Positions 1 through 45,489 of a DNA stretch of 54,971 nt are shown piece after piece (the stretch's first letter is position 1; each line of letters begins with the position of its first letter). The position numbers and the translations under genes are program-made. This DNA comes from Candidatus Daviesbacteria bacterium (GTDB taxonomy: Bacteria > Patescibacteriota > Microgenomatia > Daviesbacterales > UBA10151). The notes beneath the pieces were generated by a model. It saw nothing but the letters and a program-made list of their open reading frames with translations, searched no databases and was not told the DNA's origin. The stretch is from positions 1 to 54,971 of the forward strand of contig JAQUSJ010000003.1 of assembly GCA_028715175.1 (NCBI GenBank), read 5' to 3'.

Positions 1-126
1 AGGAGATGCGGCATATTTAATGAAAAGTATAATCAGAAAAGATACCACCACTCCTTGCATTACCAGACCCCGCTAGCTTATATTAAAAGTTATCTTGAGA
101 AAGGAGGACAACCGTTCTCTATCTAG
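1..126 (+). CDS. 3' end of a DDE (rve/integrase-core) transposase gene; 5' part lies outside the window
   Basis: Frame 1 is open from base 1 and reads RRCGIFNEKYNQKRYHHSLHYQTPLAYIKSYLEKGGQPFSI, with stop TAG at 124-126. YNxxRxHxSLxxxTP is the usual C-terminal tail of IS3/IS481-type transposases. An identical inverted copy lies at 54857-54971. Confidence 0.6.
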   Translation, partial: RRCGIFNEKYNQKRYHHSLHYQTPLAYIKSYLEKGGQPFSI

Positions 127-174: not shown

Positions 175-180
175 TTTACG

Positions 181-406
181 GCGTTGAAGAGGAAAAGTAA
201 GCAAGGTGACGTTTTATAGCAAGAAGGATAGCTGAAAGCCTTTAAATTTAATCTTGTCTGAAGAGAGCCTCCGAGCAAAGATCGAAGAAATCTGTCCAAC
301 AGAAAGTAGGTCTTCTTAATAAAGAGTATCTTATTAATTACTTAATAAGATAAATTAGGGTGGTACCACGGGTTAATCTCGTCCCTAGTACAAGGACGAG
401 TTTTTT
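181..406 (+). promoter_or_regulatory. T-box riboswitch leader, probable arginine (AGA) specifier, controlling the argG operon
   Basis: Stem I spans 181-277. It has K-turn halves GCGTTGA and CGAGCA, an AGTA element at 196-199, a distal loop AAGG-ATAGCTGAAAG-CCTT at 224-242, and a specifier loop GAAG-AGA-G at 260-267 directly 5' of helix CCTC (268-271), which pairs with GAGG (189-192). Stem III is TCTTATTA/TAATAAGA at 329-350. The conserved T-box sequence AAATTAGGGTGGTACCACGG is at 352-372, followed by the terminator at 378-406. Confidence 0.8.
378..406 (+). terminator. Intrinsic terminator of the T-box expression platform
   Basis: CTCGTCC (378-384) pairs with GGACGAG (394-400) around a 9-nt loop, followed by TTTTTT at 401-406. 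TAGGG of the T-box sequence can pair instead with CCCTA (383-387) to form an antiterminator. Confidence 0.75.
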
Positions 407-426: not shown

Positions 427-1650
427 ATGGGAAATAAAGATAATCATGTGAATAAAGTAGTATTGGCCTTTTCAGGAGGTCTAGATACCTCATATTGTGC
501 TCTTTATCTAAAAGAGCAAGGTTATGATGTAGTGACTGTTACCGTTGATACGGGTGGTTTTAGCAAAGTAGAGATAGATAAAATTGCTGCACAATCTAAA
601 TTATTAGGTGCGAAAAACCACTACCTTATTAATGGTAAAAGTCAGCTCTATAATCAGTTTATTTCATATATCATCAAAGGGAATATCTTGCGGGGTGGAG
701 TTTATCCTCTTTGTGCCGGTACCGAGAGATTGGTTATTGTCCAGAAATTGGTTGAAACTGCCAAAAAAGTAGGAGCTGAATACATTGCTCATGGATCAAC
801 TGGTGCAGGTAACGATCAAATCCGGTTCGATGTTGCCTTGCAAGTTTTGGCGCCTGATTTAAAAATTCTTACCCCGGTTAGAGATTCAGGTATCAAGCGC
901 GAGGAAGAATTTGAATTACTGAAAAAATATCATTTACTAGGTTCCTTTACATCAAGTGCTTATTCAATCAATCAGAGTCTTTTGGGAGTTACTGTTAGCG
1001 GAGAGGAAACTAAAGGTTCTTGGGATACATTTCCTGAGGAAGTTATTTTTAGTGTTACTCCACTAAACAAAACACCTCAATCCCTGGTAGAATTTGTTCT
1101 ATCCTTCAAAAAAGGATTGCCTGTTGCCATAGATAATAAGAAAATGAGTGGTATTGTCATCATGGATTATCTTGGAAAGATCGGCAGCCAACATGGTATA
1201 GGTACAGGCATTCATTTAGGCAATACAATTCTTGGTATCAAGGGTAGAGTTGCTTTTGCAGCGCCTGCTGCGATTATTCTTATTAAAGCGCATAAAGAAT
1301 TGGAAAAGTTGGTACAGACAAAATGGCAATCATTTTGGAAAGAAACGCTAAGTGATTTTTACGGCAATTTATTACATGAGGCTCTTTATTTTGATCCAGT
1401 TATGCGCGATTTAGAAGCGATGATTGATAGCAGTCAGCAAAATGTGACAGGTGATGTTAAAGTTCAACTTTTTAAAGGCAATATTATTATAAATGGCTGT
1501 CAGAGTCCTTATTCCTTGATGGATCCTAAGATCGCTACTTATGGGGAGGAGAATATAATGTGGGACAGCCGGGATATTGCTGGGTTCTCAAAGATATACG
1601 CAATACCGGGTATGTTGGCGACTAATGTTAAAAGAAAGAAGAAAATATGA
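427..1650 (+). CDS. argG: Argininosuccinate synthase
   Basis: N-terminal VVLAFSGGLDTS is the PP-loop ATP pyrophosphatase motif. Also present are AHGSTGAGNDQIRF and a 407-aa length typical of ArgG. Confidence 0.9.
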   Translation: MGNKDNHVNKVVLAFSGGLDTSYCALYLKEQGYDVVTVTVDTGGFSKVEIDKIAAQSKLLGAKNHYLINGKSQLYNQFISYIIKGNILRGGVYPLCAGTERLVIVQKLVETAKKVGAEYIAHGSTGAGNDQIRFDVALQVLAPDLKILTPVRDSGIKREEEFELLKKYHLLGSFTSSAYSINQSLLGVTVSGEETKGSWDTFPEEVIFSVTPLNKTPQSLVEFVLSFKKGLPVAIDNKKMSGIVIMDYLGKIGSQHGIGTGIHLGNTILGIKGRVAFAAPAAIILIKAHKELEKLVQTKWQSFWKETLSDFYGNLLHEALYFDPVMRDLEAMIDSSQQNVTGDVKVQLFKGNIIINGCQSPYSLMDPKIATYGEENIMWDSRDIAGFSKIYAIPGMLATNVKRKKKI

Positions 1651-2684
1651 AGAAAATTAAATTAGATAAAATTCCGTCCATTTTTAAGAATGTTGATTTG
1701 TCAGACGAGGTCTGGATCGACAATCATGTTACTGCCGAAGAAGGAATGATGGTAGTAATTCAGGCAGAAGAAAATTCTGGTAAAAAAGACGTCATGGAGT
1801 TTGTTGGTGGACGTCTGGGTGTAACTCTAAAAGGTGATATTTTTGCCGGAGTATTAGGTTACAGAAAGGCACTAGTGGAATTTGCTGGAGTGGTTCCCGG
1901 GAAAATTAAAGTCGGGGATCAGTTATATCTGCTTTGCGAAAGTGGACTTATTGGGGATGTTTCTGGTGTTTATGAAGCTTGGGGTAAACCGATGAAAGTG
2001 AAGATATTGGGAGCGCTGGTGGATGAAAAAGGATGTTCAAAGACTCTCAAAAGCTATGTATTACCAAAAATCAAACCTATTCAAAAGAACATTCCGATGA
2101 TTTGTTTTGTGGCTACCAGAATGGATTCCGGGAAAACCACCATGGCTTGTAAGATAGCAAATTATTTCAAACAGCATGGTAAAAAGATCATAGCTATAAA
2201 GTCTACCGGAGTCAGTTATCTGCAGGATCCGTATAAGTTATTGGATAACGGAGTTGAGCAGGTTTTGGATTTTACGGACATGGGTTTACCTTCAACCTGT
2301 AACGGTAATGTAAAAGAGGTTCTTGAATCGACTGTTAACCTTATTAATCATGCTAAATCAGTGGATCCGGATTTAATCCTTATGGAATTCGGCGAAGGTA
2401 TTCTTGGAGAATATCATGTGCTTGATATACTAAAATACAAACCTATTAGAGATCAATTTTCATATGTGGTTTTGGCAGCTAATGATTTAACAGGCATATT
2501 GGGAGCTAAAGAAATACTCAAGAAAAAATGCAAACTGGAGATCGACATGGTGACCGGTCCGATTGCCAACAGTCATTTAGGTGTTCAGTTAATCGAGAAA
2601 TATTTCCAACTGGATGCAGAAAGTAACCAGCATGAAATTCACAAAACTATAGCTTCAATTAATAAAAAACTTTTCTCTGGATAA
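1647..2684 (+). CDS. Uncharacterised two-domain protein with a Walker-A-like motif (possibly DUF1611/DgcN-like), embedded in the arg operon
   Basis: The ATG overlaps the argG stop (ATGA at 1647-1650). Blocks seen are VATRMDSGKTT, then IKSTG, LDFTDMG and LMEFGEG. The protein is 345 aa. Family placement is from memory only. Confidence 0.45.
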   Translation: MKKIKLDKIPSIFKNVDLSDEVWIDNHVTAEEGMMVVIQAEENSGKKDVMEFVGGRLGVTLKGDIFAGVLGYRKALVEFAGVVPGKIKVGDQLYLLCESGLIGDVSGVYEAWGKPMKVKILGALVDEKGCSKTLKSYVLPKIKPIQKNIPMICFVATRMDSGKTTMACKIANYFKQHGKKIIAIKSTGVSYLQDPYKLLDNGVEQVLDFTDMGLPSTCNGNVKEVLESTVNLINHAKSVDPDLILMEFGEGILGEYHVLDILKYKPIRDQFSYVVLAANDLTGILGAKEILKKKCKLEIDMVTGPIANSHLGVQLIEKYFQLDAESNQHEIHKTIASINKKLFSG

Positions 2685-2690: not shown

Positions 2691-3734
2691 ATGAAACATT
2701 TTTTAACAACCTCAGATTTTGGACAGCAAGAATTGATGAATATGATAAAAACTGCTTTAGTGATGAAGAAATCAGGATGGAAAAAATCACTTCAAGACAG
2801 GATTCTCAGCATGTTTTTTTTCAATCCATCGTTGCGAACCAGATTGTCGTTTATTACCGCCATGGATAAGTTGGGTGGTCTGGCCGTGGATTTATCTTCT
2901 GGTAGTGGCGGTTTTCCGTTTGAATTTAAGGAGAATGCAGTCATGGATAAAAACACTATTGAACATGTTAAAGAAGCAGTGCCTGTGATATCGCGCATGA
3001 GTGATGCTATTGCTGTTAGAGCAAGCGAGCTAGTGACTGCTTCTTCAAAAAGCGTTAAAGTTCTTTCATGGGATGAGGTCAAGAAAGATACTACTATACA
3101 GAGTTTTGCCAAATACGCTACGGTGCCTGTTGTGAATATGGAATCAAATGTTTATCATCCCTGTCAAGGTTTAGGTGATGCCATGACTATTATGGAAAAG
3201 TTAGGTAACCCTAAAGGTAAAAAGTATGTTCTAACATGGGTTTATCATCCCAAGGCTCTACCAATGGCTACGGCGAATTCTCAGATTCTCTCTGCTTGTG
3301 ATTTGGGAATGCAAGTTACCATAACTTATCCTGAAGGATGGGATCTTGACGAGGATATTATCAATACAGCCAAAGCAAGAGCCAGACAAACCGGTGGGTC
3401 TTTAACGCTGGCTAACTCTCAGCAAGAAGCATTTCAGGATGCCCATATTGTATGCGCCAAAAGCTGGGGATCTATCAGGCACTATGGTGCTTGGTCTAAA
3501 GAAGATAAGATAAAGAAAGGATTAAAACACTGGATAGTTGACAAACAAAAAATGGATCTGACTGATAATGCCTATTTTATGCATTGTCTTCCTGTCAGGA
3601 GAAATGTTGAAGTGACGGATGAGATTTTAGACAGCTTATCTTCGATCGTGATTGATGAGGCAGAAAATAGAATGTGGATTCAAATGGCGATACTGGATTA
3701 TTTAATAGGTAAAAAGGATAAAAACCATGGATAA
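2691..3734 (+). CDS. argF': N-acyl-L-ornithine (acetyl/succinyl) carbamoyltransferase-like transcarbamylase
   Basis: FFNPSLRTR replaces the usual STRTR, alongside HPCQ and MHCLPVRRNVEVTD. The N-terminus KHFLTTSDF and C-terminus VIDEAENRMWIQ match the AOTCase/SOTCase subfamily rather than classical OTCase. Confidence 0.75.
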   Translation: MKHFLTTSDFGQQELMNMIKTALVMKKSGWKKSLQDRILSMFFFNPSLRTRLSFITAMDKLGGLAVDLSSGSGGFPFEFKENAVMDKNTIEHVKEAVPVISRMSDAIAVRASELVTASSKSVKVLSWDEVKKDTTIQSFAKYATVPVVNMESNVYHPCQGLGDAMTIMEKLGNPKGKKYVLTWVYHPKALPMATANSQILSACDLGMQVTITYPEGWDLDEDIINTAKARARQTGGSLTLANSQQEAFQDAHIVCAKSWGSIRHYGAWSKEDKIKKGLKHWIVDKQKMDLTDNAYFMHCLPVRRNVEVTDEILDSLSSIVIDEAENRMWIQMAILDYLIGKKDKNHG

Positions 3735-5211
3735 ACCTAAACTTGAAGCATCATCATTTATAGTTTCTGGAGAACAAATGGAATTAGATATAGAAATGGC
3801 GCCTTTTGATATTTGGGGGACAATAGTTCATGTGTTGATGCTTGTTAAGCAGGGAATTATTGATAAAGCTGGAGCTAAAGCTTGTCTTAAGGCTCTAATT
3901 GAGATAGATAAAGAGATGTGGAATGGTCAATTTGCTATTGATCCAAACAAAGGCGCCCAGTTAACCCTGGAAGCAAAACTAGTAGAGAAAGCAGGAGAAG
4001 CTGCCTACAGTATCCATACTGGCCGGAGCCGAAACGATCAGGTGATGGTAGTGGAGCTTTTGTATCTCAGGGAACAAATGCTTAAACTTTCCGAAAACGT
4101 AATTTCTCTCGTAGAATCTTTGCTTAAACTTGCAATTACCCATAAACAAACGGTTATGCCAGGGTACACTCATATGCAGCCAGGGAAAATTACAACAGTC
4201 GGACAGTGGGTAGCAGCATACCTTAATGGTTTCTTAAGGACATTGGATACGATTAAGTACTATCTTGATCTTTATGATATGAATCCTTTAGGAGCTTGTG
4301 AATCTTATGGTACATCTTGGCCGCTTGATCGGGAATTTACTGCCGAATACCTTGGTTTTGCCAAAGTATGGGAAATTCCACAGGACGCTATTTCTTCCCG
4401 AGGTTTTGCCCAACTTGGTTATTTAACTGCCATTTCGGAAATTTGCCTTGTAGCGAGTAAACTAAATGAAGATTTAATTTTATTCAGTACTTTTGAATAT
4501 GGAATGATTGAACTTGGAGATGAAGTATCTCAAAGGATGCATTCCATCACCGGCTCGTCCGTGATGGCACAGAAGAAAAACCCCGATGTTTTGGAAATTA
4601 TACGTTCAACCACTCCTCAGATAATTGGTTTTTGGTCGATTGTGGCCAACATTTTGTCATCTTTACCCATGGGTTATAACCGGGATAGCAGGGAGAGTAA
4701 AAAATTTATTCATCTGGGTTTAACTAAAACCATTTCTGTTGTAGGCTCTTTGCAAAAAGTAATCTCTACCCTAAAGGTTAACGAAAAAAGAATGCTAGAG
4801 TTGGCCACCTCAAATTATTCATTAACTACAGACTTGGCAGATTTTATATCTCAGAAGACCAAAATAGGATATAGACTTATTTATCAAATCATCGGTCAGC
4901 TAGTTGATGAGGCTATTAAGCAAGGCAACCCCTTAAGTCAAATTTCTGCTGCGGAGATTATACAAAAAGCAGCGGAGTTAAATTTAAAGATTAAAATTTC
5001 CGACGAAGAGATTACTAAGGCTGTGGATCCCAAGTTGGTAATTATTAAGAGGAAAAACGTGGGTGGAAGTAATTCAGTCACAATGGATAAGCTATTGGAT
5101 GATGCGAGCAAAAATATTAAAAAACAATTATCTTGGATTCAACAAAAACAAACTACAATCAAGGATGCTCGCCAGAAGACAGATAAATTAGTTAAAGAAA
5201 TGATTTCCTAA
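3727..5211 (+). CDS. argH: Argininosuccinate lyase
   Basis: Fumarate-lyase signature GSSVMAQKKNPDVLE, plus HTGRSRNDQ and GYTHMQPG. The start overlaps the argF' stop by 8 nt. Confidence 0.9.
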   Translation: MDKPKLEASSFIVSGEQMELDIEMAPFDIWGTIVHVLMLVKQGIIDKAGAKACLKALIEIDKEMWNGQFAIDPNKGAQLTLEAKLVEKAGEAAYSIHTGRSRNDQVMVVELLYLREQMLKLSENVISLVESLLKLAITHKQTVMPGYTHMQPGKITTVGQWVAAYLNGFLRTLDTIKYYLDLYDMNPLGACESYGTSWPLDREFTAEYLGFAKVWEIPQDAISSRGFAQLGYLTAISEICLVASKLNEDLILFSTFEYGMIELGDEVSQRMHSITGSSVMAQKKNPDVLEIIRSTTPQIIGFWSIVANILSSLPMGYNRDSRESKKFIHLGLTKTISVVGSLQKVISTLKVNEKRMLELATSNYSLTTDLADFISQKTKIGYRLIYQIIGQLVDEAIKQGNPLSQISAAEIIQKAAELNLKIKISDEEITKAVDPKLVIIKRKNVGGSNSVTMDKLLDDASKNIKKQLSWIQQKQTTIKDARQKTDKLVKEMIS

Positions 5212-6176
5212 TGGCATTGACTGGGCAATTTTGCCCCAAAATCCGGTCTGTCAAAAAAGCCTAGGGCTGCGACTGCCCCGATTAAACCCCGTTCTTCGCC
5301 AATTGGGTAAAGTGTTACCCTGGATTCTTTGCACACTCTTTTCAGCTTTTGAAGATCCTCAAACAAATGGAACTTTAGATCTGTACAAAAATCTATTAGA
5401 TTTTCTGGTAAAGAAAACCCGTCAAAAGTAGCCATCCCTGTTTGAGGACTGACAGTATATTTTTTTAATAGCTTAATAAACTCATCGATGATTTGTTTTT
5501 TCTGGATGTCTCGATCATAAATAAAGCTGATCAAAGTGCTTAGACAGTTTTTGGTCTTATGAGGATTGTTGGGAAAGAGCTGTATGTTATTATGAGTGGC
5601 ATAATAGACATTGAATTTTTTTCCTATGTCAATGGATATGTTATGAGCTAATGCATAAGTGGCACCTTCTGACTCGTTATCCGTATCATCCACCCCGATC
5701 AGCAAAAGTTTTTTAGCAGGCAGTACGATTCTTCCTATACCAAGCTTGTTACCTCCTCCTTCTTGGATAACCTGTACTTTTTCTACTCCTTCGGCTATAC
5801 CTCTGGAAAAGGAAGCGCTAACTCCGCCGCCACCGAAACCTGCAAAAGTGATAGCAACTTTGTCTTTTGTGACTAAACATTCTTCTATGCCGATAGGAGC
5901 AAAAGACGGAACTAAATTAAGTTTGGCTTTACCCTGATTGAGGATGTAAATAGTCATATTTCCTTCCCGGTAGCTTTTTTCGACAATTGAACTGGTTAAT
6001 GGAAAATGTAATGCCCGCCAGCCTTCAATAAAAAAGCCATTTCTGGGGCCATAATCTTCAATGTACATAACTCTCTTAGGAGTTGGGTCAACTACGGCCA
6101 AAATTTTATTGTAAGCCATGACCCATTTTCTGTTTTTCAATTTTGATTTAAGTTCTTGTGGGGTATATGTGGTCAT
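5208..6176 (-). CDS. Fusion protein: unknown Gly-rich N-domain plus a TiaS TCKD (DUF1743)-like C-domain
   Basis: IGVDDTDNESEGATYALA, LFPNNPHKTKNC and GEERGLIGAVAALG are colinear with remembered TiaS blocks GIDDTDSxxGMCTTYLA, NPxIPxKTRGNG and GRGLIGALAAVG. The start was chosen at the ATG at 6176-6174, 1 nt after the upstream stop. The tool ORF extends to 6236. Confidence 0.5.
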   Translation of the reverse strand: MTTYTPQELKSKLKNRKWVMAYNKILAVVDPTPKRVMYIEDYGPRNGFFIEGWRALHFPLTSSIVEKSYREGNMTIYILNQGKAKLNLVPSFAPIGIEECLVTKDKVAITFAGFGGGGVSASFSRGIAEGVEKVQVIQEGGGNKLGIGRIVLPAKKLLLIGVDDTDNESEGATYALAHNISIDIGKKFNVYYATHNNIQLFPNNPHKTKNCLSTLISFIYDRDIQKKQIIDEFIKLLKKYTVSPQTGMATFDGFSLPENLIDFCTDLKFHLFEDLQKLKRVCKESRVTLYPIGEERGLIGAVAALGFFDRPDFGAKLPSQCH

Positions 6177-6177
6177 A

Positions 6178-7149
6178 CTAATTGTGTTTGCCTGGGAAGA
6201 TTTCTGCCAAGAGACAACGGGCACTGCCTCCTCCAATTGTTTCTATGGTGGGAATATTGACAGGAACAATATCTCCATGATTCAACAGTTGTCTCTTTTG
6301 GTTCTCAGTAAAGGCGTCATAGGCTGTAGTGGACATTATGATTCTATTTCTTCCCAAAATAGACTGCATATCCAATACATTTCCGCAAAAAGAGTATAAT
6401 TGGTTTAAGGTAATTGGGATTATCTCCACCCCTAATGTTTCTAGTTCGCCCTGAACACTATGACGTTCTTGAGTATTCCTTATCGCGTCGAGACATACAA
6501 CGGAAAACTCCGCACCAATACTCATAACTACATTGGTGTGATAAATTGATTCTCCGCCTCTACCATATGCATGAAATTTGATTGGCCGATAGCCTGTTTT
6601 TGCACAAAAATCATCCAAAACTTGATAGGAAGTTCTGGCTGACTCATGGGCAAAGACTACTTTTCTTCTTCGATCGAATACCAAACTGCCGGTACCCTCA
6701 AGGAAGCGCCCGGACTGTTCATGATATGTTAAATCCAGTACATGAGATGAATCGGTTGCTATCCAGGGAACCAAACGTCTCACTTGGTCTAATTGTCTTT
6801 CCGCCCTTCTATTAAGAGCAAGCATAGGATATAAAATGACATCTATACCATCTAATTCGCTGTGAAAGGAAATCCAGTTATTGGGAAAGACTGCATCAGG
6901 AGTATTTACACCTGTTCTGCTGGGACACACGACTACTTTAATTCCATTTCCGCGCAATAAATCTACCACTGTGTTAAATTCTGTCATGGCTTTATGGCAA
7001 ATTTCTCCGGAATCTGGAGATAGCTTACTTTGGAAAGTATTAGTACTGGCTGTCTGGTCATTGAAACCAAAGCTATCAGGGCTAACCATTAAGACGATAT
7101 CTGTTAATTGAGTAGTTCTAGTCGATAAAGGCGTTTCTGATATAGCCAT
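6178..7149 (-). CDS. CtlX/amidinotransferase-like guanidino-group-modifying enzyme (citrulline/arginine hydrolase family)
   Basis: The C-terminal GGGSARCLLAEIF carries the catalytic Cys typical of the arginine deiminase/DDAH/amidinotransferase superfamily. HTNVVMSIG and the LMVSP N-terminus resemble the arginine-deiminase-related (CtlX) family. Confidence 0.65.
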   Translation of the reverse strand: MAISETPLSTRTTQLTDIVLMVSPDSFGFNDQTASTNTFQSKLSPDSGEICHKAMTEFNTVVDLLRGNGIKVVVCPSRTGVNTPDAVFPNNWISFHSELDGIDVILYPMLALNRRAERQLDQVRRLVPWIATDSSHVLDLTYHEQSGRFLEGTGSLVFDRRRKVVFAHESARTSYQVLDDFCAKTGYRPIKFHAYGRGGESIYHTNVVMSIGAEFSVVCLDAIRNTQERHSVQGELETLGVEIIPITLNQLYSFCGNVLDMQSILGRNRIIMSTTAYDAFTENQKRQLLNHGDIVPVNIPTIETIGGGSARCLLAEIFPGKHN

Positions 7150-7217: not shown

Positions 7218-7724
7218 TTAAGAAGCTGGAGTAGGGTGAGTGGGGAAAGGATAAAATGGACGTGGCAAAATGGTGATCCTTATTCCTGTAGCAGGATCCA
7301 AATGATCAAAGGCTGCTCCAAAACCTATTACAGTTATGGATTTTAAGATGTCTGCGTGGAGAGGGTTATTACTGTCAGTCATAGATTTAACAGCTGCTAG
7401 GAGAGTAGATGGATTCCTGTCTATAATCCAATATGATCCTTCACCATTTTGCGCTCTGCGTGAACTGAGATTTTCTAGTATCTGTCTTGCTCTTTCTTCT
7501 GGTGAACTGCATAGAATGATAGGTAAAGAATCTGGTACTCCAGCTGCAGTTAATAATGCACGTGTTCTTTTCACCATCTCTGTATCTGGTAGATTTTGTT
7601 CGCGATTAGGATAGATCCCTCCGCATAAGGAGTTAGCTCTTTTGACAAAATCAGATATTTCCTTAGGTCTTATGTCTGTGATGTCACCAACAATGATCAC
7701 TCTTTCAGTTCCAATAGAGCTCAT
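7218..7724 (-). CDS. Hypothetical protein, no recognisable motif
   Basis: A 168-aa ORF on the same strand as its arginine-related neighbours. The coding call rests on length and context only. Confidence 0.4.
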   Translation of the reverse strand: MSSIGTERVIIVGDITDIRPKEISDFVKRANSLCGGIYPNREQNLPDTEMVKRTRALLTAAGVPDSLPIILCSSPEERARQILENLSSRRAQNGEGSYWIIDRNPSTLLAAVKSMTDSNNPLHADILKSITVIGFGAAFDHLDPATGIRITILPRPFYPFPTHPTPAS

Positions 7725-7780: not shown

Positions 7781-8887
7781 TTAATCTTTAGCCCAGGCAA
7801 AGTAAACCTGTTCGAAAATACCTGATGCAGTGCTAATTTGTTTAATATCTGCTGATTCATCTGTTGTGTGAGCCTGAGAGGTTTCTCCTGGGCCAAAAAT
7901 CACCCCGTCAATGCCTAAATTTGTAAAAAACCCCAAATCATTGGAAGCATCATTTATTGCTATTTTTATTCCTGGGACTACACTTTGGAATACTTTGACA
8001 ATTTTTGAATCTGGGTTGGTGTAGCCGGCCGGACCTGGGGGATGAAGTAGCGATAATTTAATACCCCGCTTTTGTGCCAGCTGTTTGATTCTGTCAAAGG
8101 CCTTTTCATGGTAGCCGGGAATAGTGCGTAAGTCAAAAGTAGCCCGACAATAGCCGGCTGTTTTATTGGGAGAATCTGATTTAGCTTCAATTGAGGTTGA
8201 GGTAATAGCGGGAGGAACAAACTCAGAGTCTTTAAACTTTTTCTGCCAGCTCAAATTTTCTGTTTGCAAATCGTTTATAAAATTATTCATTTCGGCAATC
8301 GCATGAGACTTTATAGCTGAGGGTCTGGAGGAGTGAGTAGAAGTGCCTGTCTTTTCTGCTTTAATAAAAAAGTGTCCCCGGTGTCCATATTTGACAGTGT
8401 TAAGATCGGTTGGTTCTGCAAAAACAGCAGCCAGCTCACTGTATTGTTTGAGATAACCCTTTTTTTCAAACCACTCTGTAAATTGTTTTGTTCCTGCTCC
8501 GTCTGTTTCTTCTTTCACCACAAAGGTAAACCAAACATCTGTGGATAGTTGCTTTTTGATTAAGGATTTGGCAGTTTCCATCATGGCTAATACTCCACCT
8601 TTCGCATCAGAAGCACCTCTGCCAAAAATTCTGCCATTGACAATTTCACCTTCCCATGGATTGTGTTTCCATCTTATAATATCGCCTATATCCACAATAT
8701 CCACATGACTATTAAAAATAAATGCTCGTTTTTGATCTTCGCCATCCAGTTTGACTATTAAATTATCTCCTTGGAAAAAAGGTTTTATGCCAGCATCTTC
8801 AAGCTGAGTCTTAATATATTCTAAGATCAGCTTTTCTTTGCTTGAATATGATTGGAAATTTATTAATTTTCTTAAGCTATTTATCAT
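7781..8887 (-). CDS. M20 family deacylase (ArgE/DapE-like; candidate acyl-citrulline/acyl-ornithine deacylase)
   Basis: NSHVDIV, GRGASDAKGG and VVKEETDG are the M20 metal and catalytic motifs. The protein is 368 aa and starts 9 nt downstream of argS. Confidence 0.75.
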   Translation of the reverse strand: MINSLRKLINFQSYSSKEKLILEYIKTQLEDAGIKPFFQGDNLIVKLDGEDQKRAFIFNSHVDIVDIGDIIRWKHNPWEGEIVNGRIFGRGASDAKGGVLAMMETAKSLIKKQLSTDVWFTFVVKEETDGAGTKQFTEWFEKKGYLKQYSELAAVFAEPTDLNTVKYGHRGHFFIKAEKTGTSTHSSRPSAIKSHAIAEMNNFINDLQTENLSWQKKFKDSEFVPPAITSTSIEAKSDSPNKTAGYCRATFDLRTIPGYHEKAFDRIKQLAQKRGIKLSLLHPPGPAGYTNPDSKIVKVFQSVVPGIKIAINDASNDLGFFTNLGIDGVIFGPGETSQAHTTDESADIKQISTASGIFEQVYFAWAKD

Positions 8888-8896: not shown

Positions 8897-10783
8897 TTAC
8901 ATCCTTTCAGGCGCTTCAATGCAAAGCAAGTCTAGGCCGTTTTTCACAACTTGAGCTGAGGCTTGCGTCAAACGCAGAAGACTGTTCCTTCGTACTGAAT
9001 CCGGTTCATTAACGATACGTACTCTGTCGTACAAGGTAGTAAATAAATCAGCAGCACGGAAGATGTATTCTGCAAGTATATCAGGTCTGCTGGTTTGCGC
9101 GGCTCTAGTAATTGCTTCAGGGAATTTACTAAGATGTTTAATGAGGGCGTTTCCTGGCTGATTAGTCACTTCGATTGGTAAATCGTACCGTAATTCCATT
9201 TGTTCCTTCTGAGCTCGTTGCAGTAGGGCTCTCATTCTGGCATATGCATATTGGATATAAGGAGCGCTGCGTCCTGTGAAGGATAAAGCGCTGTCCCAGT
9301 CAAATTTAATCGATCTTTCTCTACCTTGTCCCAGATCAAAGAATACAACCGCCCCAACTCCTACTTGTCTGGCGATAGTTTCTTTTTCCTCTCTAGATAG
9401 ATCCCTGCTTAAATCATCAATTTTTTGTCTGGCTCTGTCAACAGCTTCAGTTAGCAAATCTTCTAAAAAAATCACTCTTCCGGCTCTGGTGGACATCTTT
9501 CCTTCTGGCAACCTGATCATGCCGAAATGAACATGTTCTGTTTGAGGACCTGTATTCCCCGTCATCATATCGAAAGTGGCAAAAATTTGTCGAAAATATC
9601 TTTGTTGATCTTCACCAACTACATAAATAATTCTGTGGGGATTAAACCAAGCGCAGCGCGCTACCAGTGTGGCTAAATCTCTGGTGGAGTATAAGCTTGT
9701 GCCGTCTGTTTTTTGAACTACTAATTTATCAAGGTTTTTCATAGATAAATCAACCACAATTGCGCCAGTTTCATCTATTGAGGCAATGTTTCTTTCTCTC
9801 ATATATTCTAAAACACGTGGAATCATAGGTATATAGAACGATTCTCCCAGCATATATTCATACCGGGATCCGAGTACATCATATACTCTTTGGAATTCAG
9901 CTAAGCTTTTTTGGGTAGCCCACTTTAAAAGTTCAATTGCTCTTTCGTCTCCAGATTCCAATCTTTGAAACCATCTTCTACCTTCTCGTTCCAAAGCTGT
10001 TTCCACATCCTCGTTTGCATCTAAACCCGATCTTTCTCGTTCGGCGATTTTTTCTTTCTCTACTTCCTCATGAATACGAACATAGAGTTTATATAGACCT
10101 TTGACCGGATCAGTGCCCTCACTTAATTCTTCATAATCATCTGCCCATAGTTCATGAGCTCTTGCCAACATACCGAATTGAGTTCCCCAATCGCCTAAAT
10201 GATTATCACGAATAACTTTATAACCGATGGCTCTGTTTATTCTGGCAAGCGATTCGCCGATTATCGTTGATCTTAAATGGCCGATACTCATGTATTTGGC
10301 TACGTTAGGGGATGAGCAGTCAATTACCACTGTTTCACCTTCTCCGATGTTTTGTTCACCATAGTGGTCTTGATATGTTTCGACTTCAGAGATGGCTTGA
10401 TTTCCGAATATATGCATATTAAGCAGGAAATTAAGATATCCTTTTTGGGCGATAGCTTCTTGAATAGTTGGCGGATTGGGATCTGAATTAAAACCCTCAG
10501 CCAACTCTTGAGCAATTTGCGCAGGACTTTTTCTTAATCTTCCTGCCATTTCATGACAAATTACGGTTAAATCAGCTGCTACATTAGGAGATGGTTCGGT
10601 TGCCCGCATGCCAGCCTCGGCCAAAACAGGATTAAGCCCGACAAGATGAGATATTAAATCTCTTTGTGTAGCAGTCCAAATATATTGGTTACTTCGAGGC
10701 ATATTTAAAAGATCCGGTTTAGTAATTGGGATATTACTCTCGGACAAAACAGGGACAGGAATACCTAAATATTGTTCGGTCAT
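8897..10783 (-). CDS. argS: Arginyl-tRNA synthetase
   Basis: The class I HIGH region reads SSPNVAKYMSIGHLRSTIIG, with an anticodon-binding C-terminus. The start was moved to the ATG at 10783-10781, which forms an ATGA overlap with the arcA stop. Confidence 0.9.
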   Translation of the reverse strand: MTEQYLGIPVPVLSESNIPITKPDLLNMPRSNQYIWTATQRDLISHLVGLNPVLAEAGMRATEPSPNVAADLTVICHEMAGRLRKSPAQIAQELAEGFNSDPNPPTIQEAIAQKGYLNFLLNMHIFGNQAISEVETYQDHYGEQNIGEGETVVIDCSSPNVAKYMSIGHLRSTIIGESLARINRAIGYKVIRDNHLGDWGTQFGMLARAHELWADDYEELSEGTDPVKGLYKLYVRIHEEVEKEKIAERERSGLDANEDVETALEREGRRWFQRLESGDERAIELLKWATQKSLAEFQRVYDVLGSRYEYMLGESFYIPMIPRVLEYMRERNIASIDETGAIVVDLSMKNLDKLVVQKTDGTSLYSTRDLATLVARCAWFNPHRIIYVVGEDQQRYFRQIFATFDMMTGNTGPQTEHVHFGMIRLPEGKMSTRAGRVIFLEDLLTEAVDRARQKIDDLSRDLSREEKETIARQVGVGAVVFFDLGQGRERSIKFDWDSALSFTGRSAPYIQYAYARMRALLQRAQKEQMELRYDLPIEVTNQPGNALIKHLSKFPEAITRAAQTSRPDILAEYIFRAADLFTTLYDRVRIVNEPDSVRRNSLLRLTQASAQVVKNGLDLLCIEAPERM

Positions 10784-12006
10784 ATGTTTGATCTTAAAAG
10801 CTGTCCGGTCATACAATGTGCGGCACCATAACCTTTGGTGCTCTCAAATAAATCGGTATGTACCACTTGTTTACCCAGCCCTCTCAGTTGATTATTTGTA
10901 TCAGTATTATAGCGTAGCGGCACAAATATGACACATCTCCCGCTGCTATCTTCTCCTTTGAGTAGAAAGTTACAGCCAAATCCTTTTTGTTCTTCTTGTG
11001 GAATAATCACGATATTATCTTCTGTTTGCTCCAGAAAGTCAATGAAGCTACCGAAACCATCATTTATAACTAAATTATCCCCAAAACTATTTAAGAATCT
11101 GATTCTTCTTCTTCGCGCTTCTTCTATACAAACAGCTATTTCTCTTTTGCCTACTGGATTTGAGAAAGTATCAAGATGCATGGAGTCTTGTTGTTCGCTA
11201 AAAGATCGGCCGAACGGATCTTCGTCTTCTACTACGGCGAATTTCAGACAGCATTGTTCCAGTTGTGGTTTGAGAGCCTGATATATTCCAACTGCTGCGC
11301 CTAATGTGGTACGTGTGCCTACACCGACAAACACAGTACCATTATGAATATAGGCGTCACCACCTTCAAAGGTTTCGCCAGAAGGGATGATAATTGTTGT
11401 GTGTGGTGCCAAATGTTGCTGGTAGACGAGTTCGTACAAATCAACTTCATGTCGTCTAATAGCCTTGGCCATTCGCGAAACTACCCTTGTGTCGCATAAG
11501 ACATTCATATGATCTCTGCCGTAGAGACTATTACCCAGAGGAAACTGTGGGTCAACGCTCAAAGTTTGATTTAAGTTCAAAGCTCCTTCCTCTCCATACC
11601 GAACAATGTCTTGTTCTACAAGCATTGTTATTAAATCAGCAGAATCTTCTACATGAATATCATATTGATTTTGAATAGCTTGAGCTCTACCAACCATCGC
11701 AGCGATTACTGCGTCTTTTCTTAATGGTCTTGGTTTTAAGGTTTCGGCCAAGAGATCCCTTACCATAAGAACTTTTACTCCGTGATCTTGTAAGATAGCA
11801 GCATAATTTATTCCTTCCTGTCTGGCAGTAATTACATCAAATGACTGATAAAATAGAGAGATTGCTTTAGGATAACACTGGGCTAAAACAGCCTCCGCGC
11901 CAATGGCTCCCCAAGTAGAGACAGCTCTCAAGGGTTCAGCTTCATCGAAAATACCTATTTGAATAGAATTTGGGGGCAGATCCGACTCAAGCGAATGAGC
12001 GATCAT
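10780..12006 (-). CDS. arcA: Arginine deiminase family protein
   Basis: 408 aa, with GGDAYIHNGTVFVGVGTRTT, HLDTF and C-terminal GAAHCMTGQLLR carrying the catalytic Cys. Confidence 0.7.
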   Translation of the reverse strand: MIAHSLESDLPPNSIQIGIFDEAEPLRAVSTWGAIGAEAVLAQCYPKAISLFYQSFDVITARQEGINYAAILQDHGVKVLMVRDLLAETLKPRPLRKDAVIAAMVGRAQAIQNQYDIHVEDSADLITMLVEQDIVRYGEEGALNLNQTLSVDPQFPLGNSLYGRDHMNVLCDTRVVSRMAKAIRRHEVDLYELVYQQHLAPHTTIIIPSGETFEGGDAYIHNGTVFVGVGTRTTLGAAVGIYQALKPQLEQCCLKFAVVEDEDPFGRSFSEQQDSMHLDTFSNPVGKREIAVCIEEARRRRIRFLNSFGDNLVINDGFGSFIDFLEQTEDNIVIIPQEEQKGFGCNFLLKGEDSSGRCVIFVPLRYNTDTNNQLRGLGKQVVHTDLFESTKGYGAAHCMTGQLLRSNI

Positions 12007-23473: not shown

Positions 23474-23836
23474 ATGATTCAGAGCTTCAAAGATTTAGAG
23501 GTTTATCAAGAAAGCTATGAATTAGCAATTACTGTAAATAAACTTTGTATAAAACTTCCGATTTATGAGAAAAATGATTTAGCTTCACAATTAAGGCGTG
23601 CCTCAAAATCTGCACCTGCCAATGTTGCCGAAGGTTGGGCGAAAAGAAGATTTGAAAAAGAATTCAAAAAGCATCTCGATTGCGCAATTGGATCAGCTAA
23701 TGAGATGGAGGTGCATTTAAATATGGCAAAAGATTTAGGTTATCTGAATCAGGTAATTTGTGATGAGCTTATTAGTAGATATATTGCTTTAGGCGGGAAA
23801 CTAACCAATCTTAGAAATAATTGGAAAACTTATTAG
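23474..23836 (+). CDS. Four-helix-bundle protein (23S rRNA intervening-sequence protein family)
   Basis: FKDLEVYQESYELA, LRRASKSAPANVAEG and GSANEMEVHL are characteristic of the IVS/four-helix-bundle family. The protein is 120 aa. Confidence 0.8.
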   Translation: MIQSFKDLEVYQESYELAITVNKLCIKLPIYEKNDLASQLRRASKSAPANVAEGWAKRRFEKEFKKHLDCAIGSANEMEVHLNMAKDLGYLNQVICDELISRYIALGGKLTNLRNNWKTY

Positions 23837-24826: not shown

Positions 24827-24847
24827 GGTATACTCTTAAATCATAAC

Positions 24848-25681: not shown

Positions 25682-25769
25682 TCCATCAAGCCCTTTTGCT
25701 TATTTTATAGGTAATTTTGTGATTCATATTACTGCAGCTAGAAAATTTTTATGGTAAAAAAGGATTCTT

Positions 25770-25955: not shown

Positions 25956-25997
25956 ATTTTGAAAGAAAATTAAATAAAGATTGCTGAGCGCGAACGC

Positions 25998-41089: not shown

Positions 41090-41111
41090 AAATATAAAAA
41101 GGTTTTAAATT

Positions 41112-42218
41112 ATGATGGGGAGACTGGTTCTGTCCGATGGGACAGTTTTTTTAGGGGAAAGTTTCGGGAAAGAGGATACCACCTCAGGGGAGGTGGTTTT
41201 TAATACCGGAATGGCAGGCTACCCCGAATCTCTGACAGACCCATCTTATTTCGGGCAAATTCTGGTTTTAACCTACCCCTTGCAAGGCAATTATGGGGTT
41301 CCGGAGAGTAAGTTTTGGGAATCAGGGAAAATTCAGGTTAAGGGACTAATTGTCCAAAATTATATTGATCACCCATCACATTTTGAAAGCCGGAAAACTT
41401 TGGGAGATTGGCTTAAGGAACAAGGAATACCTGCTATACAAGGAATTGATACCAGAGAGCTGACCAGGAAGTTAAGGGAACATGGAGTGATGTTGGGGAA
41501 GATAGTCGTCAGCTATCAGCCATCAGTCGTCAGAGAAGACATAATTGGGATTTATGATCCTAACAAAGAAAATATTTTGCCTTATGTAAGTACTAAGAAA
41601 GTTGAAGTCTATGGTGAAGGCAGAAAAAATATAGTTCTAATTGATTGTGGAGCAAAGGAAAATATTATCAGGAGTTTAGTAAAGAGAGGCGTAAGAGTGA
41701 CAAGAGTGCCTTGGGACTTTAATCCGCTGACATCAAAAATAGATTCTTCGCTAGTCGCTCAGAATGACAGGGGGGGTGGGCTGGATTTTGACGGAGTGCT
41801 GGTTTCAAATGGGCCGGGTGATCCGAAACAGGCAAAGGATACTATAAAAATTGTCAAACAGCTTCTAGAAGCAAATATTCCGACATTTGGTATTTGTTTA
41901 GGCAGCCAGATTTTAGCGTTAGCTGCAGGCGGAGAAACCTACAAATTAAAATTTGGCCACAGAGGTCAAAATCAGCCAGTCATGGACCAATTTAATAAAA
42001 AGGCTGTGATAACCAGTCAGAATCACGGATTTGCAGTTGATATGAAATCAATGGATAAAGATTGGAAGGAATGGTTTGTTAACTTAAACGACGGGACAAA
42101 TGAAGGAATCAGGCATAAAAGTAAACCGTTTTTGGCAGTGCAGTTTCACCCGGAGGCAAACCCGGGTCCGATTGAGGGAGGATATTTGTTTGATGAGTTT
42201 CTAAAATATGTCAAATAA
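41112..42218 (+). CDS. carA: Carbamoyl-phosphate synthase small (glutaminase) subunit
   Basis: The N-terminus LSDGTVFLGESFG, the GATase triad region FGICLGSQ, and QFHPE. Confidence 0.9.
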   Translation: MMGRLVLSDGTVFLGESFGKEDTTSGEVVFNTGMAGYPESLTDPSYFGQILVLTYPLQGNYGVPESKFWESGKIQVKGLIVQNYIDHPSHFESRKTLGDWLKEQGIPAIQGIDTRELTRKLREHGVMLGKIVVSYQPSVVREDIIGIYDPNKENILPYVSTKKVEVYGEGRKNIVLIDCGAKENIIRSLVKRGVRVTRVPWDFNPLTSKIDSSLVAQNDRGGGLDFDGVLVSNGPGDPKQAKDTIKIVKQLLEANIPTFGICLGSQILALAAGGETYKLKFGHRGQNQPVMDQFNKKAVITSQNHGFAVDMKSMDKDWKEWFVNLNDGTNEGIRHKSKPFLAVQFHPEANPGPIEGGYLFDEFLKYVK

Positions 42219-45200
42219 GTTAAGAAAGGTTTTAGTTTTGGGTTCAGGGGCGCTAAAAATAGGCGAGGCAGGAGAATTTGATTACTCCGGTTCACAAGCC
42301 TTAAAAGCTTTAAAAGAAGAAGGAGTGGAGGCTATTTTAATCAATCCCAACATTGCCACAATTCAAACTTCGAAAAGTTTGGCAAAAAAGATTTATTTTT
42401 TGCCTGTAACAGCGTATTTTGTCCAAAAAGTGATTGAAAAAGAAGCTCCTGACGGAATTTTTTTGAGCTTTGGAGGGCAAACTGCCCTAAATTGCGGTCT
42501 GGCGCTGGAGCGAAGAGGGCTATTTAAGAAATTACATTTACAAGTTTTAGGCTCTTCAGTACGAAGCATCCAAGTTACCGAAGACAGGGAATTATTTGCC
42601 AGGGAACTTTCCAAAATTGCTGTCAAAGCGCCGAAAGGAGGTTTTGCAAAAACCCTTGATGAGGCGCTAAAAATTGGCCAGAAATTAGGTTACCCCCTGC
42701 TAATCAGATCGGGATTTTCACTAGGAGGATTGGGTTCCGGGGTGGTTAACAACAAGGAGGAATTTATTAAAACGGTCTCTATTGCTTTGAAACAAGCTCC
42801 ACAAATTGCGATTGAGGAATACTTAAAACACTGGAAAGAGATTGAATATGAGGTAGTGCGGGATAAAGATGGCAATAAAATCACTGTTTGTAATATGGAA
42901 AATATGGATCCTTTGGGAATTCATACCGGTGAAAGTATTGTGGTAGCTCCTTCCCAAACCCTCAATAATTATCAGTATCACTTCCTCCGCAAGTTATCTT
43001 TGCAGGTAATTGAACATTTGGGGATTGTGGGTGAGTGCAATATCCAGTTTGCCTTAAATCCTAAAAATAATGATTACAGAGTTATTGAAGTTAACGCCAG
43101 GCTGTCACGATCTTCAGCTCTGGCTTCAAAAGCAACCGGATACCCGCTGGCTTATATCGCAGCCAAGCTGGCTTTGGGTTACAGTTTGCCTGAGATAAAA
43201 AATAACGTGACTCTCTCAACCAGCGCATTTTTTGAACCTAGCTTAGATTATATTGTAGTCAAGATTCCCAGATGGGATTTACAAAAATTTGTGGGGGCGA
43301 AAGAGATAATCGGTTCTGAAATGAAAAGCGTGGGAGAGGTTATGGCAATCGGGCGAAGCTTTCCAGAAGTTTTACAAAAAGCCATCAGAATGCTGGAAAC
43401 AGGTCAGGATGGTTTATTGGGAAACGATATAGATGATACCAAGCTTTTGCCTACAACAGAGCGGCTTTTTGTTGTGGCCCAAAGATTTGCCAGGGGGGAG
43501 CAGATAGAAGATATTTATAAGGCAACAGGCATTGATCCCTGGTTTCTTTATCAAATACGGGAAATGGTAACCTTTGAGAAGAAACTATTAAATTGTCATT
43601 CTGAGGCGAAGCCGAAGAATATATCTACGGAATTATATCCTTCGCTAACGCTCAGGATGACAAAGAAGGTGATGAGTGAAGCCAAGAAGTTGGGTTTCTC
43701 GGATAAATTATTAGCTAAAGCATTTGGAATCTCTGAGGGTGGAATAAGAAGGTTTAGGAAAAAACACGGTATAGTGCCGAGAGTAAAGCACATAGATACT
43801 TTGGCTGCCGAATATCCGGCCAAGACGAATTATCTTTATTTGACTTATCATGGAAATGAAACAGAGGATAATAAGATAAGAGTAACTAGTGATGAGTCTA
43901 AAATACAAAAGACTCTTCACTCTTATCCTAGTTCCTCTTATCCTAAAAAGGCTATTGTTTTAGGATCAGGTCCTTACAGAATTGGTTCATCTGTTGAATT
44001 TGATTGGTGCTCTGTTACGGCTGCGGAAACTTTGCGATCAAAGGGACTTCAAACGATTATTATCAATTGCAACCCGGAGACCGTTTCAACTGACTACGAT
44101 TGTGCAGACAAATTATATTTTGAGGAGTTAACCTTTGAGCGGGTCAGTGATATTTATGAAATCGAACAATCTGCAAGTTTGGTTTTGGGTTTTGGCGGCC
44201 AGGTGCCTAATAATCTGGCAATGAATTGTTTCCGGGCAGATTACAAAATCCTGGGGACTTCACCTGAAAATATAGACAGGGCAGAAGACAGAAACAAATT
44301 TTCCAAACTTTTGGATAAATTAAACATCGAACAAGCGTCGTGGCAGAGCTTGAAACGTTTAGATGATGCTTTAAAGTTTGCCAGAAAAATCGGTTATCCG
44401 GTTTTAATAAGACCTTCGTATGTTTTATCAGGATCAGCGATGAATGTTGCATATTCCAGCACTGATCTTAAAAAATATCTTAAGAGCGCTTCAGATGTGT
44501 CTTCGGAGCATCCGGTAGTAATTTCCAAATTTGTAGAAGGAGCAAAGGAGATTGAGATTGATGGTGTCGGACAAAACGGAAAACTTTTAATTTATGCCAT
44601 ATCTGAGCATGTAGAGAATGCAGGAGTGCATTCAGGCGACGCTACGATCGTACTTCCTCCCCAAAAACTATACCTGAAAACTGTCAGAATGGTAAAAAAT
44701 GCCACCAAAAAGATTGTTGAAACATTAAGCATTAATGGTCCGTTTAATATCCAATTTTTAGCAAAAGCAAATAAAATTATGGTGATCGAGCTAAACCTTA
44801 GAGCCTCGCGCTCTTTCCCGTTTGTCTCAAAAGTGACCGGGTTTAATTTTGTAGAAATGGCAACTAAAGTGATGCTTGGAGAAGTTCTTTCCGGCGATTT
44901 TAATACCATTGATTTGGACTATGTTGGGGTGAAAGCACCCCAATTTTCTTTTAGCCGGATTAAGGGTGCTGACCCCAGGTTGCGGGTAGAGATGTCCTCA
45001 ACAGGGGAAGTGGCTTGTTTCGGAGACGATCTGGAAGAAGCCTATCTTAAAGCAATCCTGGCAACAGGATTTAAGATGCCGGAGAGGAGTGTTTTCCTGA
45101 CCATTGGCGGAGAAAAAAACAAGCTTGATTTGCTGGTATCTGCTAAGGAACTTTTCCATTTGGGTTTTAAAATCTATGCCACGGAACATACCTCTGAATT

Positions 45201-45489
45201 TTTAAGCAAGCATGCTATTAAAAATATCCGGGTCTATAAAATTTCGGAAAGAAAAACGCCTTCTGTTTTAGACCTTCTTAAAGACGGTAAGATCGATCTG
45301 GTGATAAATATATCTGAATCAAGATCAAACCAGGGCGAAACTGCAGGATATCTTATCAGAAGAAACTGTGTGGATTTGGGGATTCCCTTGATAACCAATG
45401 TGCAGGCAGCAGAACTCTTGGTTTCTGCTCTTTCTTCTAAAAAAATGGAAGATTTGGAAATTAAAAGTTGGGATGAATATGTTGGGTAA
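42208..45489 (+). CDS. carB: Carbamoyl-phosphate synthase large subunit
   Basis: 1093 aa with duplicated ATP-grasp halves, an N-terminus [24 protein letters not shown], and an MGS-like C-terminus. Confidence 0.95.
   Translation: [1093 protein letters not shown]

Follow-up and report, generated by a model that had tools for sequence, protein, structure and literature searches.

A stretch of 54,971 nucleotides from a Candidatus Daviesbacteria genome (assembly GCA_028715175.1, contig JAQUSJ010000003.1, positions 1 to 54,971 of the forward strand; hereafter the window, meaning this whole stretch) carries a short arginine operon in which the transcarbamylase ArgF' is of the type that acts on acylated ornithine. 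Which enzyme, then, attaches the acyl group? Between argG and argF' lies a gene for an unnamed 345-residue P-loop protein, here called X, and an earlier note, made from the sequence, had proposed that X supplies this missing N-acylating step. The proposal was supported by the linkage of X to arginine genes, by 51 full arginine clusters, by a natural fusion to an ArgB-type domain and by a published prediction (GapMind 2026 preprint). X is therefore predicted to be, as we think likely, the enzyme of the N-succinylation step in the arginine pathway. Its acceptor in this lineage is tentatively predicted to be L-ornithine, which we hold at somewhat under an even chance. The operon and the genes that would serve the same route are as follows.

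175..389, plus strand: T-box leader (Rfam RF00230, 104.3 bits against a gathering score of 93), with the specifier codon AGA (Arg) at 264-266
378..406, plus strand: T-box terminator hairpin, CTCGTCC...GGACGAG followed by TTTTTT, read from the sequence; it overlaps the 3' end of the Rfam match
427..1650, plus strand: argG, argininosuccinate synthase (TIGR00032 320 bits, NF001770 337 bits, Pfam PF00764 and PF20979)
1647..2684, plus strand: X, 345-residue unnamed P-loop protein, candidate N-succinylating enzyme of the S/K subfamily defined below (from the open reading frame [ORF], homologues and synteny)
2691..3734, plus strand: argF', knotted acyl-ornithine transcarbamylase with a succinyl-type signature (NF003384, 398 bits against a cutoff of 288)
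3727..5211, plus strand: argH, argininosuccinate lyase (TIGR00838, 332 bits)
7781..8887, minus strand: M20 deacylase of the ArgE/DapE family, candidate N-succinylcitrulline desuccinylase (TIGR01910 183 bits, under the 217.6-bit cutoff; PF01546)
41112..45489, plus strand: carA and carB, carbamoyl-phosphate synthase (Pfam CPSase_sm_chain, GATase and CPSase_L_D2)

The ORF coordinates bore out the tight coupling that the earlier note had described: the start ATG of X (1647-1649) shares the bases ATGA with the argG stop TGA (1648-1650), and a gap of 6 nt (2685-2690) separates the stop of X from the ATG of argF' at 2691. Similarly, the start of argH (3727) overlaps the end of argF' (3734). The placement of X under an arginine T-box also held, given the RF00230 match and the AGA specifier. 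In the window the specifier loop is GAA-G-AGA-G-CC, its counterpart in the orthologous leader at locus L005 is GAA-A-AGA-G-CC, and AGA (Arg), followed by the usual purine, is the sole codon common to both; minimum-free-energy folding of stem I alone was uninformative (z = +1.6). The M20 gene stands directly 3' of argH in most other loci of the candidate phyla radiation (CPR), as indicated by synteny, and the CarAB enzyme encoded in the window is the source of carbamoyl phosphate for ArgF'. As the earlier note had stated, argA, argJ, argB, argC and argD were not found in the 55-kb window, either by tblastn or by Pfam and NCBIfam scans of all ORFs of at least 120 residues, nor did these scans find a canonical ornithine transcarbamylase (OTC) there. 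A gene that enters from the window edge and stops directly upstream of the T-box (its 3' part at 1-126, plus strand) ends in ...FNEKYNQKRYHHSLHYQTPLAYIKSYLEKGGQPFSI*, which we take to resemble the C terminus of DDE/rve-type transposases.

Gene neighbourhoods of the X family and the acyl group

The search with X returned 159 close homologues, down to E=1e-80, all annotated as 'hypothetical' and originating from Patescibacteria (Daviesbacteria, Gottesmanbacteria and Roizmanbacteria). Counted as clusters, the family as a whole numbers at least 7,292 at 90% identity and about 1,055 at 50%, and X was accordingly accepted as a genuine gene; the family has no Pfam or NCBIfam model, and no member has been named. 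When one genome per GTDB species was scanned, relatives of X were detected in 197 species genomes; besides Chloroflexota (cultured Ktedonobacteria among them) and CPR bacteria, the carriers include Acidobacteriota, Gemmatimonadota, Planctomycetota, Armatimonadota, Myxococcota, Gammaproteobacteria and one genome labelled as archaeal (L054, below). Synteny was then determined by tblastn over 83 loci, with NCBIfam confirmation of argR, argC, argD and argB in L043, L052 and L054. Arginine genes stood beside X in about 75 of the 80 species genomes, from more than 10 phyla, so that the linkage on which the earlier note had leaned proved near-universal.

The neighbourhoods fell into three arrangements. 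In 51 loci with full clusters (F type) the order is argR-argG-X-argC-(argD)-argF'-argB-(M20)-argH. The S type, found in the window and in L001-L015 from Microgenomates-type CPR bacteria, reads argG-X-argF'-argH-M20, without argB or argC and with no confident argD, and the K type of Ktedonobacteria reads X-argF'-carA-carB. The F-type clusters encode all steps from N-acyl-glutamate to arginine; X is their sole unassigned gene and glutamate N-acylation their sole missing step. Furthermore, in one protein (P0296) an F-type X domain is naturally joined to an amino-acid-kinase domain of the ArgB type, an architecture that by analogy would follow the same logic as the classical bifunctional N-acetylglutamate synthase/kinase. 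In most phyla the candidate role of the X family is most likely that of a replacement for ArgA or ArgJ.

This role has been predicted before. The family of Steroidobacter ACG33_RS14135 (A0A127FCT3) was proposed as an alternative N-succinylglutamate synthase, a prediction for which no assay was reported (GapMind 2026 preprint). According to the same preprint, the protein, annotated as hypothetical, is 'virtually always' in arginine operons and never alongside ArgA homologues, its ArgF' neighbours lack Glu92, and an F-type member showed a weak Foldseek likeness to DgcN 7XRJ (E=1.4e-7, with a root-mean-square deviation of 5.6 A). The F-type X loci match the context of ACG33_RS14135 (argB, argC, argD, argF', argE, argG, argH and argR), and the gammaproteobacterial clusters lack argE, as does that of Steroidobacter. 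Judged by this identical cluster context, the X family is very probably the family of the preprint; Steroidobacter was not among the best 120 matches of a search seeded with a gammaproteobacterial X member.

The partner transcarbamylases were used to determine the acyl group. The earlier note had taken ArgF' for an acyl-ornithine-type enzyme needing either N-acetyl- or N-succinyl-ornithine; the NF003384 match confirmed the type, whereas the residues spoke against the acetyl option. The acetyl type carries Glu92, Asn185 and Lys302, and the succinyl type carries A/S/P/V/Q at 92, P at 185 and V/I/E at 302 (PMC4581275). In the window ArgF', the positions of Xanthomonas E92, N185 and K302 are occupied by I90, P191 and E307, and the best PDB match is 3l06, the Xanthomonas N-acetylornithine transcarbamylase with the E92V mutation. 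The published A/S/P/V/Q list for position 92 does not contain Ile, which the GapMind 2026 preprint treats as equivalent. Glu92 occurred in none of the 73 partner ArgF' proteins and Pro185 in 71 of them, and the partners of S- and K-type X constitute an I/P/E class of their own. Because the ArgF' residues fit the published rule (PMC4581275) and none of the 73 proteins has Glu92, the pathway was assigned to the succinyl type. Going by these signature positions, the acyl group should be succinyl, not acetyl, and in such a pathway the M20 gene would encode an N-succinylcitrulline desuccinylase.

Several loci depart from the common arrangements. Two Peribacteria loci (L045 and L061) are exceptions to the arginine linkage; they carry an F-type X (K193) with no arginine gene within 10 kb, and its neighbours there are NrnA, a leucyl aminopeptidase and an aminoacetone-oxidase-family flavoprotein. 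A metagenome-assembled genome (MAG) labelled as a Methanoregulaceae archaeon (L054) has argR-argG-X-argC-argF'-argB-M20-argH on a 321-kb contig, with a bacterial ArgR; this bacterial-style cluster reflects either lateral transfer or a binning or labelling error. In the Gottesmanbacteria-type loci L002, L012, L013 and L015, the gene immediately after M20 encodes a YgeW-type knotted carbamoyltransferase (12661-13833 in L002; 585 bits against a cutoff of 453). We know of no established substrate for YgeW, and its linkage to the X cluster may be informative. A LysW-type carrier-protein route was considered for a small ORF between argG and X in the Gottesmanbacteria locus L002/L003 and was set aside, because the window, with its overlapping argG and X, has no such ORF.

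More divergent relatives occur outside arginine contexts. A third X-like subfamily (P0337 with 939 residues, P0339 and P0376) has the signature S78/C97/H98/G99/R193, and in one of its members the X-like part is joined to a methyltransferase and a TauD-family dioxygenase. P0360, an X-like protein apart from this subfamily and with a different signature, follows a response-regulator receiver domain. These occurrences suggest that the X fold is used for other acylation or ligation reactions too.

Fold and conserved residues of X

The domains and motifs of X were located as follows.

1647..2090, plus strand: N-terminal all-beta domain (residues 1-148; to about 130 in the model), from DSSP of AlphaFold2 models; it carries the subfamily-specific E78, C97, E98 and S99
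2091..2681, plus strand: C-terminal SIMIBI/BioD-like P-loop domain (residues 149-345), from Foldseek, with sub-threshold CbiA, MobB and DUF1611_C matches
2109..2141, plus strand: Walker A or P-loop motif VATRMDSGKTT (residues 155-165); T157, M159, G162, K163 and T164 are kept family-wide
2199..2210, plus strand: K185-S-T-G188, in which the invariant K185 is aligned with BioD's second catalytic lysine
2223..2228, plus strand: Q193-D194; D194 is invariant, and at 193 the S/K subfamily has Gln, against Arg or Lys in 49 of the 51 full-cluster members
2277..2300, plus strand: D211-M-G-L-P-S-T-C218; D211, G213 and T217 are family-wide and C218 is S/K-specific
2385..2393, plus strand: E247-F-G249, a Walker-B-like acidic residue closing a beta strand (243-251 in the model); family-invariant

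The earlier note had described a beta-rich N-domain followed by the blocks VATRMDSGKTT, IKSTG, LDFTDMG and LMEFGEG. Both parts of this description were borne out: the AlphaFold2 model (pLDDT 94.4, pTM 0.92) has an all-beta N-domain and then an alpha/beta P-loop domain, and among 37 homologues the cores of VATRMDSGKTT (residues 155-165), IKSTG (184-188), LDFTDMG (207-213) and LMEFGEG (244-250) are invariant. In the Foldseek search against the PDB, the C-domain matched BioD 3of5 best (target-normalised TM 0.60, E=1.2e-6), and the BioD structures 3of5, 3mle and 2qmo gave target-normalised TM values of 0.53-0.60 with E=1e-6 to 1e-5. GTPases of the signal recognition particle (SRP) and the ATPase-type HypB matched about as well as BioD; on the model, the SIMIBI class of the C-domain is established and BioD specifically is not. 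A weak match of the X profile to E. coli BioD was obtained with hhalign (E=0.0049, probability 7%, 47 columns), in which the P-loop and K185, the latter opposite the lysine that we take to be 'K37' of the BioD literature, were in register.

Sequence searches of the PDB with X and with the family profile returned only weak P-loop matches to SRP/FtsY, MobB and BioD. PF07755 and AAA_26, which the earlier note had named, stayed under threshold for the X family, as did CbiA: in the window X, CbiA reached 23.8 bits against a cutoff of 25.4, AAA_26 was weakly matched by only 2 of the 37 CPR members, and MobB was sub-threshold as well. No GNAT or ArgJ domain was found in X with Pfam and NCBIfam, and no Pfam match fell within residues 1-150. 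When the N-domain was modelled alone (pLDDT 83.5), Foldseek found no PDB match at E<0.001, the best being E=0.35. Thus, structure prediction gave a BioD/SIMIBI-like C-domain and an N-domain without a PDB counterpart, and as modelled, X is a new beta domain joined to a BioD-like nucleotide-binding domain.

The earlier note had also likened X to DUF1611 and its member DgcN. A remote P-loop similarity was indeed observed, whereas membership of DUF1611 was ruled out, since the matches are sub-threshold and restricted to the P-loop and the N-domain is different. The window X has no DUF1611_C (PF07755) match at E<1; 17 of the 37 CPR members match it weakly (best E=0.0011), ranked behind CbiA and MobB, and the best of 8 distant members scored 21.5 bits against a gathering score of 25, over profile positions of about 9-55 of 201. 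Neither 7XRJ (DgcN) nor any other DUF1611 structure was among the best 50 Foldseek matches of X (E=1.2e-6 to 3.2e-5), and the Foldseek search with the isolated N-domain gave no chain of DUF1611 or DgcN either. The DgcN analogy is a remote lead at best.

Acceptor of the S/K subfamily, rival explanations and neighbouring genes

The S and K groups form one clade, with a mean identity of 44% between S and K and 31% between S and F. The invariant E78, C97, E98, S99, Q193, C218 and N308 of this S/K subfamily stand against G, N, a hydrophobic residue, G, R, a variable residue and D in the F type; T307 is further changed to A or V, and N326-A327 to S-N. The window X accordingly carries E78, C97, S99, Q193, A307, N308, S326 and N327, and not the F-type set G78, N97, G99, R/K193, T307, D308, N326 and A327. 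Synteny of the subfamily was examined over 10 kb on either side of X in the loci and over 55 kb in the window. Both argB and argC were absent from all 14 non-redundant S-type CPR loci, from 11 of the 12 Ktedonobacteria-type loci and from the whole window; in all of these argD had no confident match and X adjoined argF'. The only argD-like gene near a CPR cluster (L001) encodes a generic class-III aminotransferase and was ruled out as ArgD, its score of 214 bits being far under the ArgD cutoff of 372. The sole S/K-clade X next to argB occurs in a Chloroflexia MAG (L026) and has Arg at 193. A Saccharibacteria locus (L060), also from CPR, has an F-type X, and argC, argD and argB are in its cluster. 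These gene orders and residues favour ornithine as the acceptor in this lineage, as do the scans of the window that found no canonical OTC and the nearby CtlX and ADI-family genes (see below), whose products would yield ornithine.

If X succinylates ornithine, the S- and K-type clusters encode unbroken reaction blocks; if it acts on glutamate, three steps are missing from 25 of the 26 non-redundant S/K loci. From the observed gene order, conservation, fold class and ArgF' signature, we infer the catalytic activity, acyl donor and acceptor of X as follows. Uncharged tRNA-Arg would switch on the operon via the T-box. X would convert ornithine to N-succinyl-ornithine, ArgF' would join this to carbamoyl phosphate from CarAB to give N-succinyl-citrulline, and the M20 enzyme would release citrulline and succinate, after which ArgG would form argininosuccinate and ArgH arginine. 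The BioD-like P-loop domain would bind the nucleotide part of the acyl donor, and the beta domain, which bears most of the subfamily-specific residues, would bind the amino acid. The donor would be either succinyl-CoA, with X acting as an acyltransferase, or ATP plus free succinate, via succinyl phosphate. The DgcN precedent (EC 2.3.1.312) suggests succinyl-CoA by analogy; ATP-dependent activation of free succinate is equally compatible with the BioD-like P-loop, the second lysine and the invariant D194, D211 and E247, and the M20 enzyme would regenerate the succinate.

Several points weigh against ornithine as the acceptor. Absence of argB, argC and argD within 10 kb or 55 kb does not equal genome-wide absence. 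Ktedonobacteria, which share the S-type signature, are free-living bacteria with large genomes that have to build the ornithine skeleton de novo, and for them the simplest reading is an ArgA-like role of X with argB, argC and argD elsewhere. Position 193 is no clean marker, as the full-cluster members L050 and L074 have Gln and Ala there, respectively. Nor is there a clear acidic shift: beside the gain of E78 and E98 and the loss of R193 stand changes of E119 to K and of D308 to N. With an ordinary OTC, the energy spent on adding a succinyl group to ornithine and removing it again would be saved. Finally, where the GapMind 2026 preprint is used as support for the general role of X, its family is equated with that of X through cluster context rather than alignment.

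In the strongest alternative, X is an N-succinyl-L-glutamate synthase replacing ArgA, the genes argB, argC and argD lie elsewhere in the CPR and Ktedonobacteria genomes, and the residue changes reflect lineage divergence rather than a new substrate. Glutamate is the family default, given the 51 full clusters, the X-ArgB fusion and the published prediction (GapMind 2026 preprint), and it would suit L026, in which an S/K-clade X is next to argB, the presumed need of Ktedonobacteria for a de novo route and the two full-cluster F-type members that lack a basic residue at 193. However, argB and argC were found in none of the 25 other non-redundant S/K loci, nor in the window, despite the tight clustering of all other arginine genes there. 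About 10 positions that are invariant in the 51 F-type sequences have been swapped for other invariant residues, more than would be predicted from neutral drift at functionally fixed sites, and the L001 aminotransferase, the only argD-like gene near a CPR cluster, scores far under the ArgD cutoff. We regard glutamate as a serious possibility, although clearly under an even chance.

Within the ornithine reading, a more specific version would make S/K-type X an ATP-dependent succinate:L-ornithine ligase with BioD-like acyl-phosphate chemistry rather than a succinyl-CoA transferase, forming with ArgF' and M20 a self-contained 'succinyl-ornithine shunt' in which succinate is recycled catalytically. 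We consider this version unlikely. If it were true, the shunt would let reduced CPR bacteria, perhaps devoid of a tricarboxylic acid cycle and hence of succinyl-CoA, make arginine from salvaged ornithine with no ordinary OTC, and X would represent a new enzyme fold for amino-acid N-acylation.

It is quite improbable that X is instead an accessory SIMIBI nucleoside triphosphatase, for example a metallochaperone or assembly factor for M20 or ArgF', or a nucleotide-dependent regulator of the pathway. Such a role could account for the Foldseek matches to HypB and SRP GTPases that equal those to BioD, for the two invariant cysteines C97 and C218 of the S/K subfamily and for the receiver-domain fusion of the distant relative P0360. 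Nevertheless, the F type has Asn97 and a variable residue 218, by which C97 and C218 were also ruled out as family-wide catalytic cysteines, and X is kept in gammaproteobacterial clusters that lack an M20 gene. In addition, the fusion to ArgB would go unexplained, and the full clusters would be left without a first-step enzyme in genomes that have no ArgA homologue (GapMind 2026 preprint).

BioD phosphorylates a carbamate. Another BioD-type ATP-dependent reaction of X, for example carbamate or carboxylate phosphorylation feeding or channelling carbamoyl phosphate to ArgF', or ligation of the precursor to another carrier, would agree with BioD as the best structural match and with the position of X beside argF' in S/K clusters and beside carAB in Ktedonobacteria, but is hardly probable, since carbamoyl phosphate is already supplied by carA and carB, which the window contains and which follow X-argF' directly in the Ktedonobacteria operons (on these grounds X was set aside as a BioD-like carbamoyl phosphate maker), F-type X adjoins argG and argC rather than argF', and the one missing step would stay unfilled.

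The succinylating role of X, whichever its acceptor, bears on pathway reconstruction. In many genomes with a succinyl-type transcarbamylase the first arginine step has no recognisable enzyme, and the X family appears to fill this gap; if the activity is true, pathway predictions, including false arginine auxotrophies, would be corrected for thousands of genomes. The subfamily in the window may show how symbiotic, genome-reduced CPR bacteria keep a short T-box-regulated route from ornithine to arginine, and whether an ArgA-type enzyme was retargeted from glutamate to ornithine.

Other genes of the window were recorded as well. On the strand opposite the T-box operon lies an island with a CtlX citrulline-utilisation hydrolase (6178-7149, minus strand; 340 bits against 334), arginyl-tRNA synthetase ArgS (8897-10816, minus strand) and an arginine deiminase (ADI)-family protein (10780-12006, minus strand). 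Going by their family assignments, CtlX and the ADI-family enzyme would yield ornithine from arginine and citrulline, facing the genes that lead from ornithine or citrulline to arginine. Next to CtlX, a gene at 5208-6236 (minus strand) encodes a bacterial homologue of 'methanogenesis marker protein 11' (TIGR03280, 278.5 bits against 255.8) with a TiaS TCKD-like domain, which has 74-76% identity in the Daviesbacteria loci L004 and L006. Its translation probably starts further downstream than the listed TTG, given a 59-nt overlap with CtlX and a family match that sets in only at residue 42. Between CtlX and M20, a 168-residue ORF (7218-7724, minus strand) has no Pfam or NCBIfam match and shows 41-43% identity in the same island of L004 and L006. 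Farther along, a gene for a 23S-rRNA-intervening-sequence protein (23474-23836) precedes four consecutive ORFs of 308, 277, 233 and 734 residues (23900-28969) with no Pfam match at E<=1e-4. A pyrimidine and carbamoyl-phosphate block (38925-45489) comprises an amidohydrolase/pyrC-like gene, pyrB, carA and carB, and 45614-49365 encodes a Fic-domain protein, a GGDEF diguanylate cyclase (minus strand) and an ATP-dependent DNA ligase.

Comparison with known systems

DgcN, a D-glutamate N-acetyltransferase (EC 2.3.1.312; PF07755 and PF17396; PDB 7XRJ), resembles X in its length of about 340 residues and in its C-terminal P-loop domain, and it N-acylates the alpha-amino group of a glutamate, which is comparable to the step proposed for the X family. 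The two would differ in substrate stereochemistry, acyl group and pathway. Moreover, DUF1611_N (PF17396) is, as we understand its Pfam description, Rossmann-like, whereas the N-domain of X is all-beta and has no PDB match. BioD shares with X the P-loop pattern T-x-x-x-x-G-K-T and the second lysine, in register with T157...K163-T164 and K185; it is only about 13-18% identical, lacks an N-terminal beta domain and acts on an unrelated substrate.

ArgA, or N-acetylglutamate synthase (NAGS), is a GCN5-related N-acetyltransferase (GNAT) and is often fused to an amino-acid-kinase domain. The P0296 fusion of X with a kinase domain mirrors this NAGS/kinase architecture. ArgA/NAGS, ArgJ and BT3761, the last a Bacteroidetes GNAT-type N-succinylglutamate synthase candidate (PMC7311316), would hold the same place in the pathway as that proposed for X, whereas their folds are unrelated to it. 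X would thus be a non-homologous replacement of the ArgA-, ArgJ- and GNAT-type first-step enzymes. The Bacteroides pathway resembles the one proposed here in its succinylated intermediates, its ArgF' of the succinylornithine transcarbamylase (SOTCase) type and its M20-type desuccinylase (PMC7311316).

Compared with the family predicted in the GapMind 2026 preprint, the window X belongs to a separate clade that is about 31% identical to the F type and has different invariant residues, and its cluster, unlike those of the preprint family, lacks argB, argC and a confident argD. The preprint does not discuss this truncated form from CPR bacteria and Ktedonobacteria. At the level of the family the idea is therefore already published as a prediction; new here is the divergent subfamily of CPR bacteria and Ktedonobacteria, with its truncated cluster.

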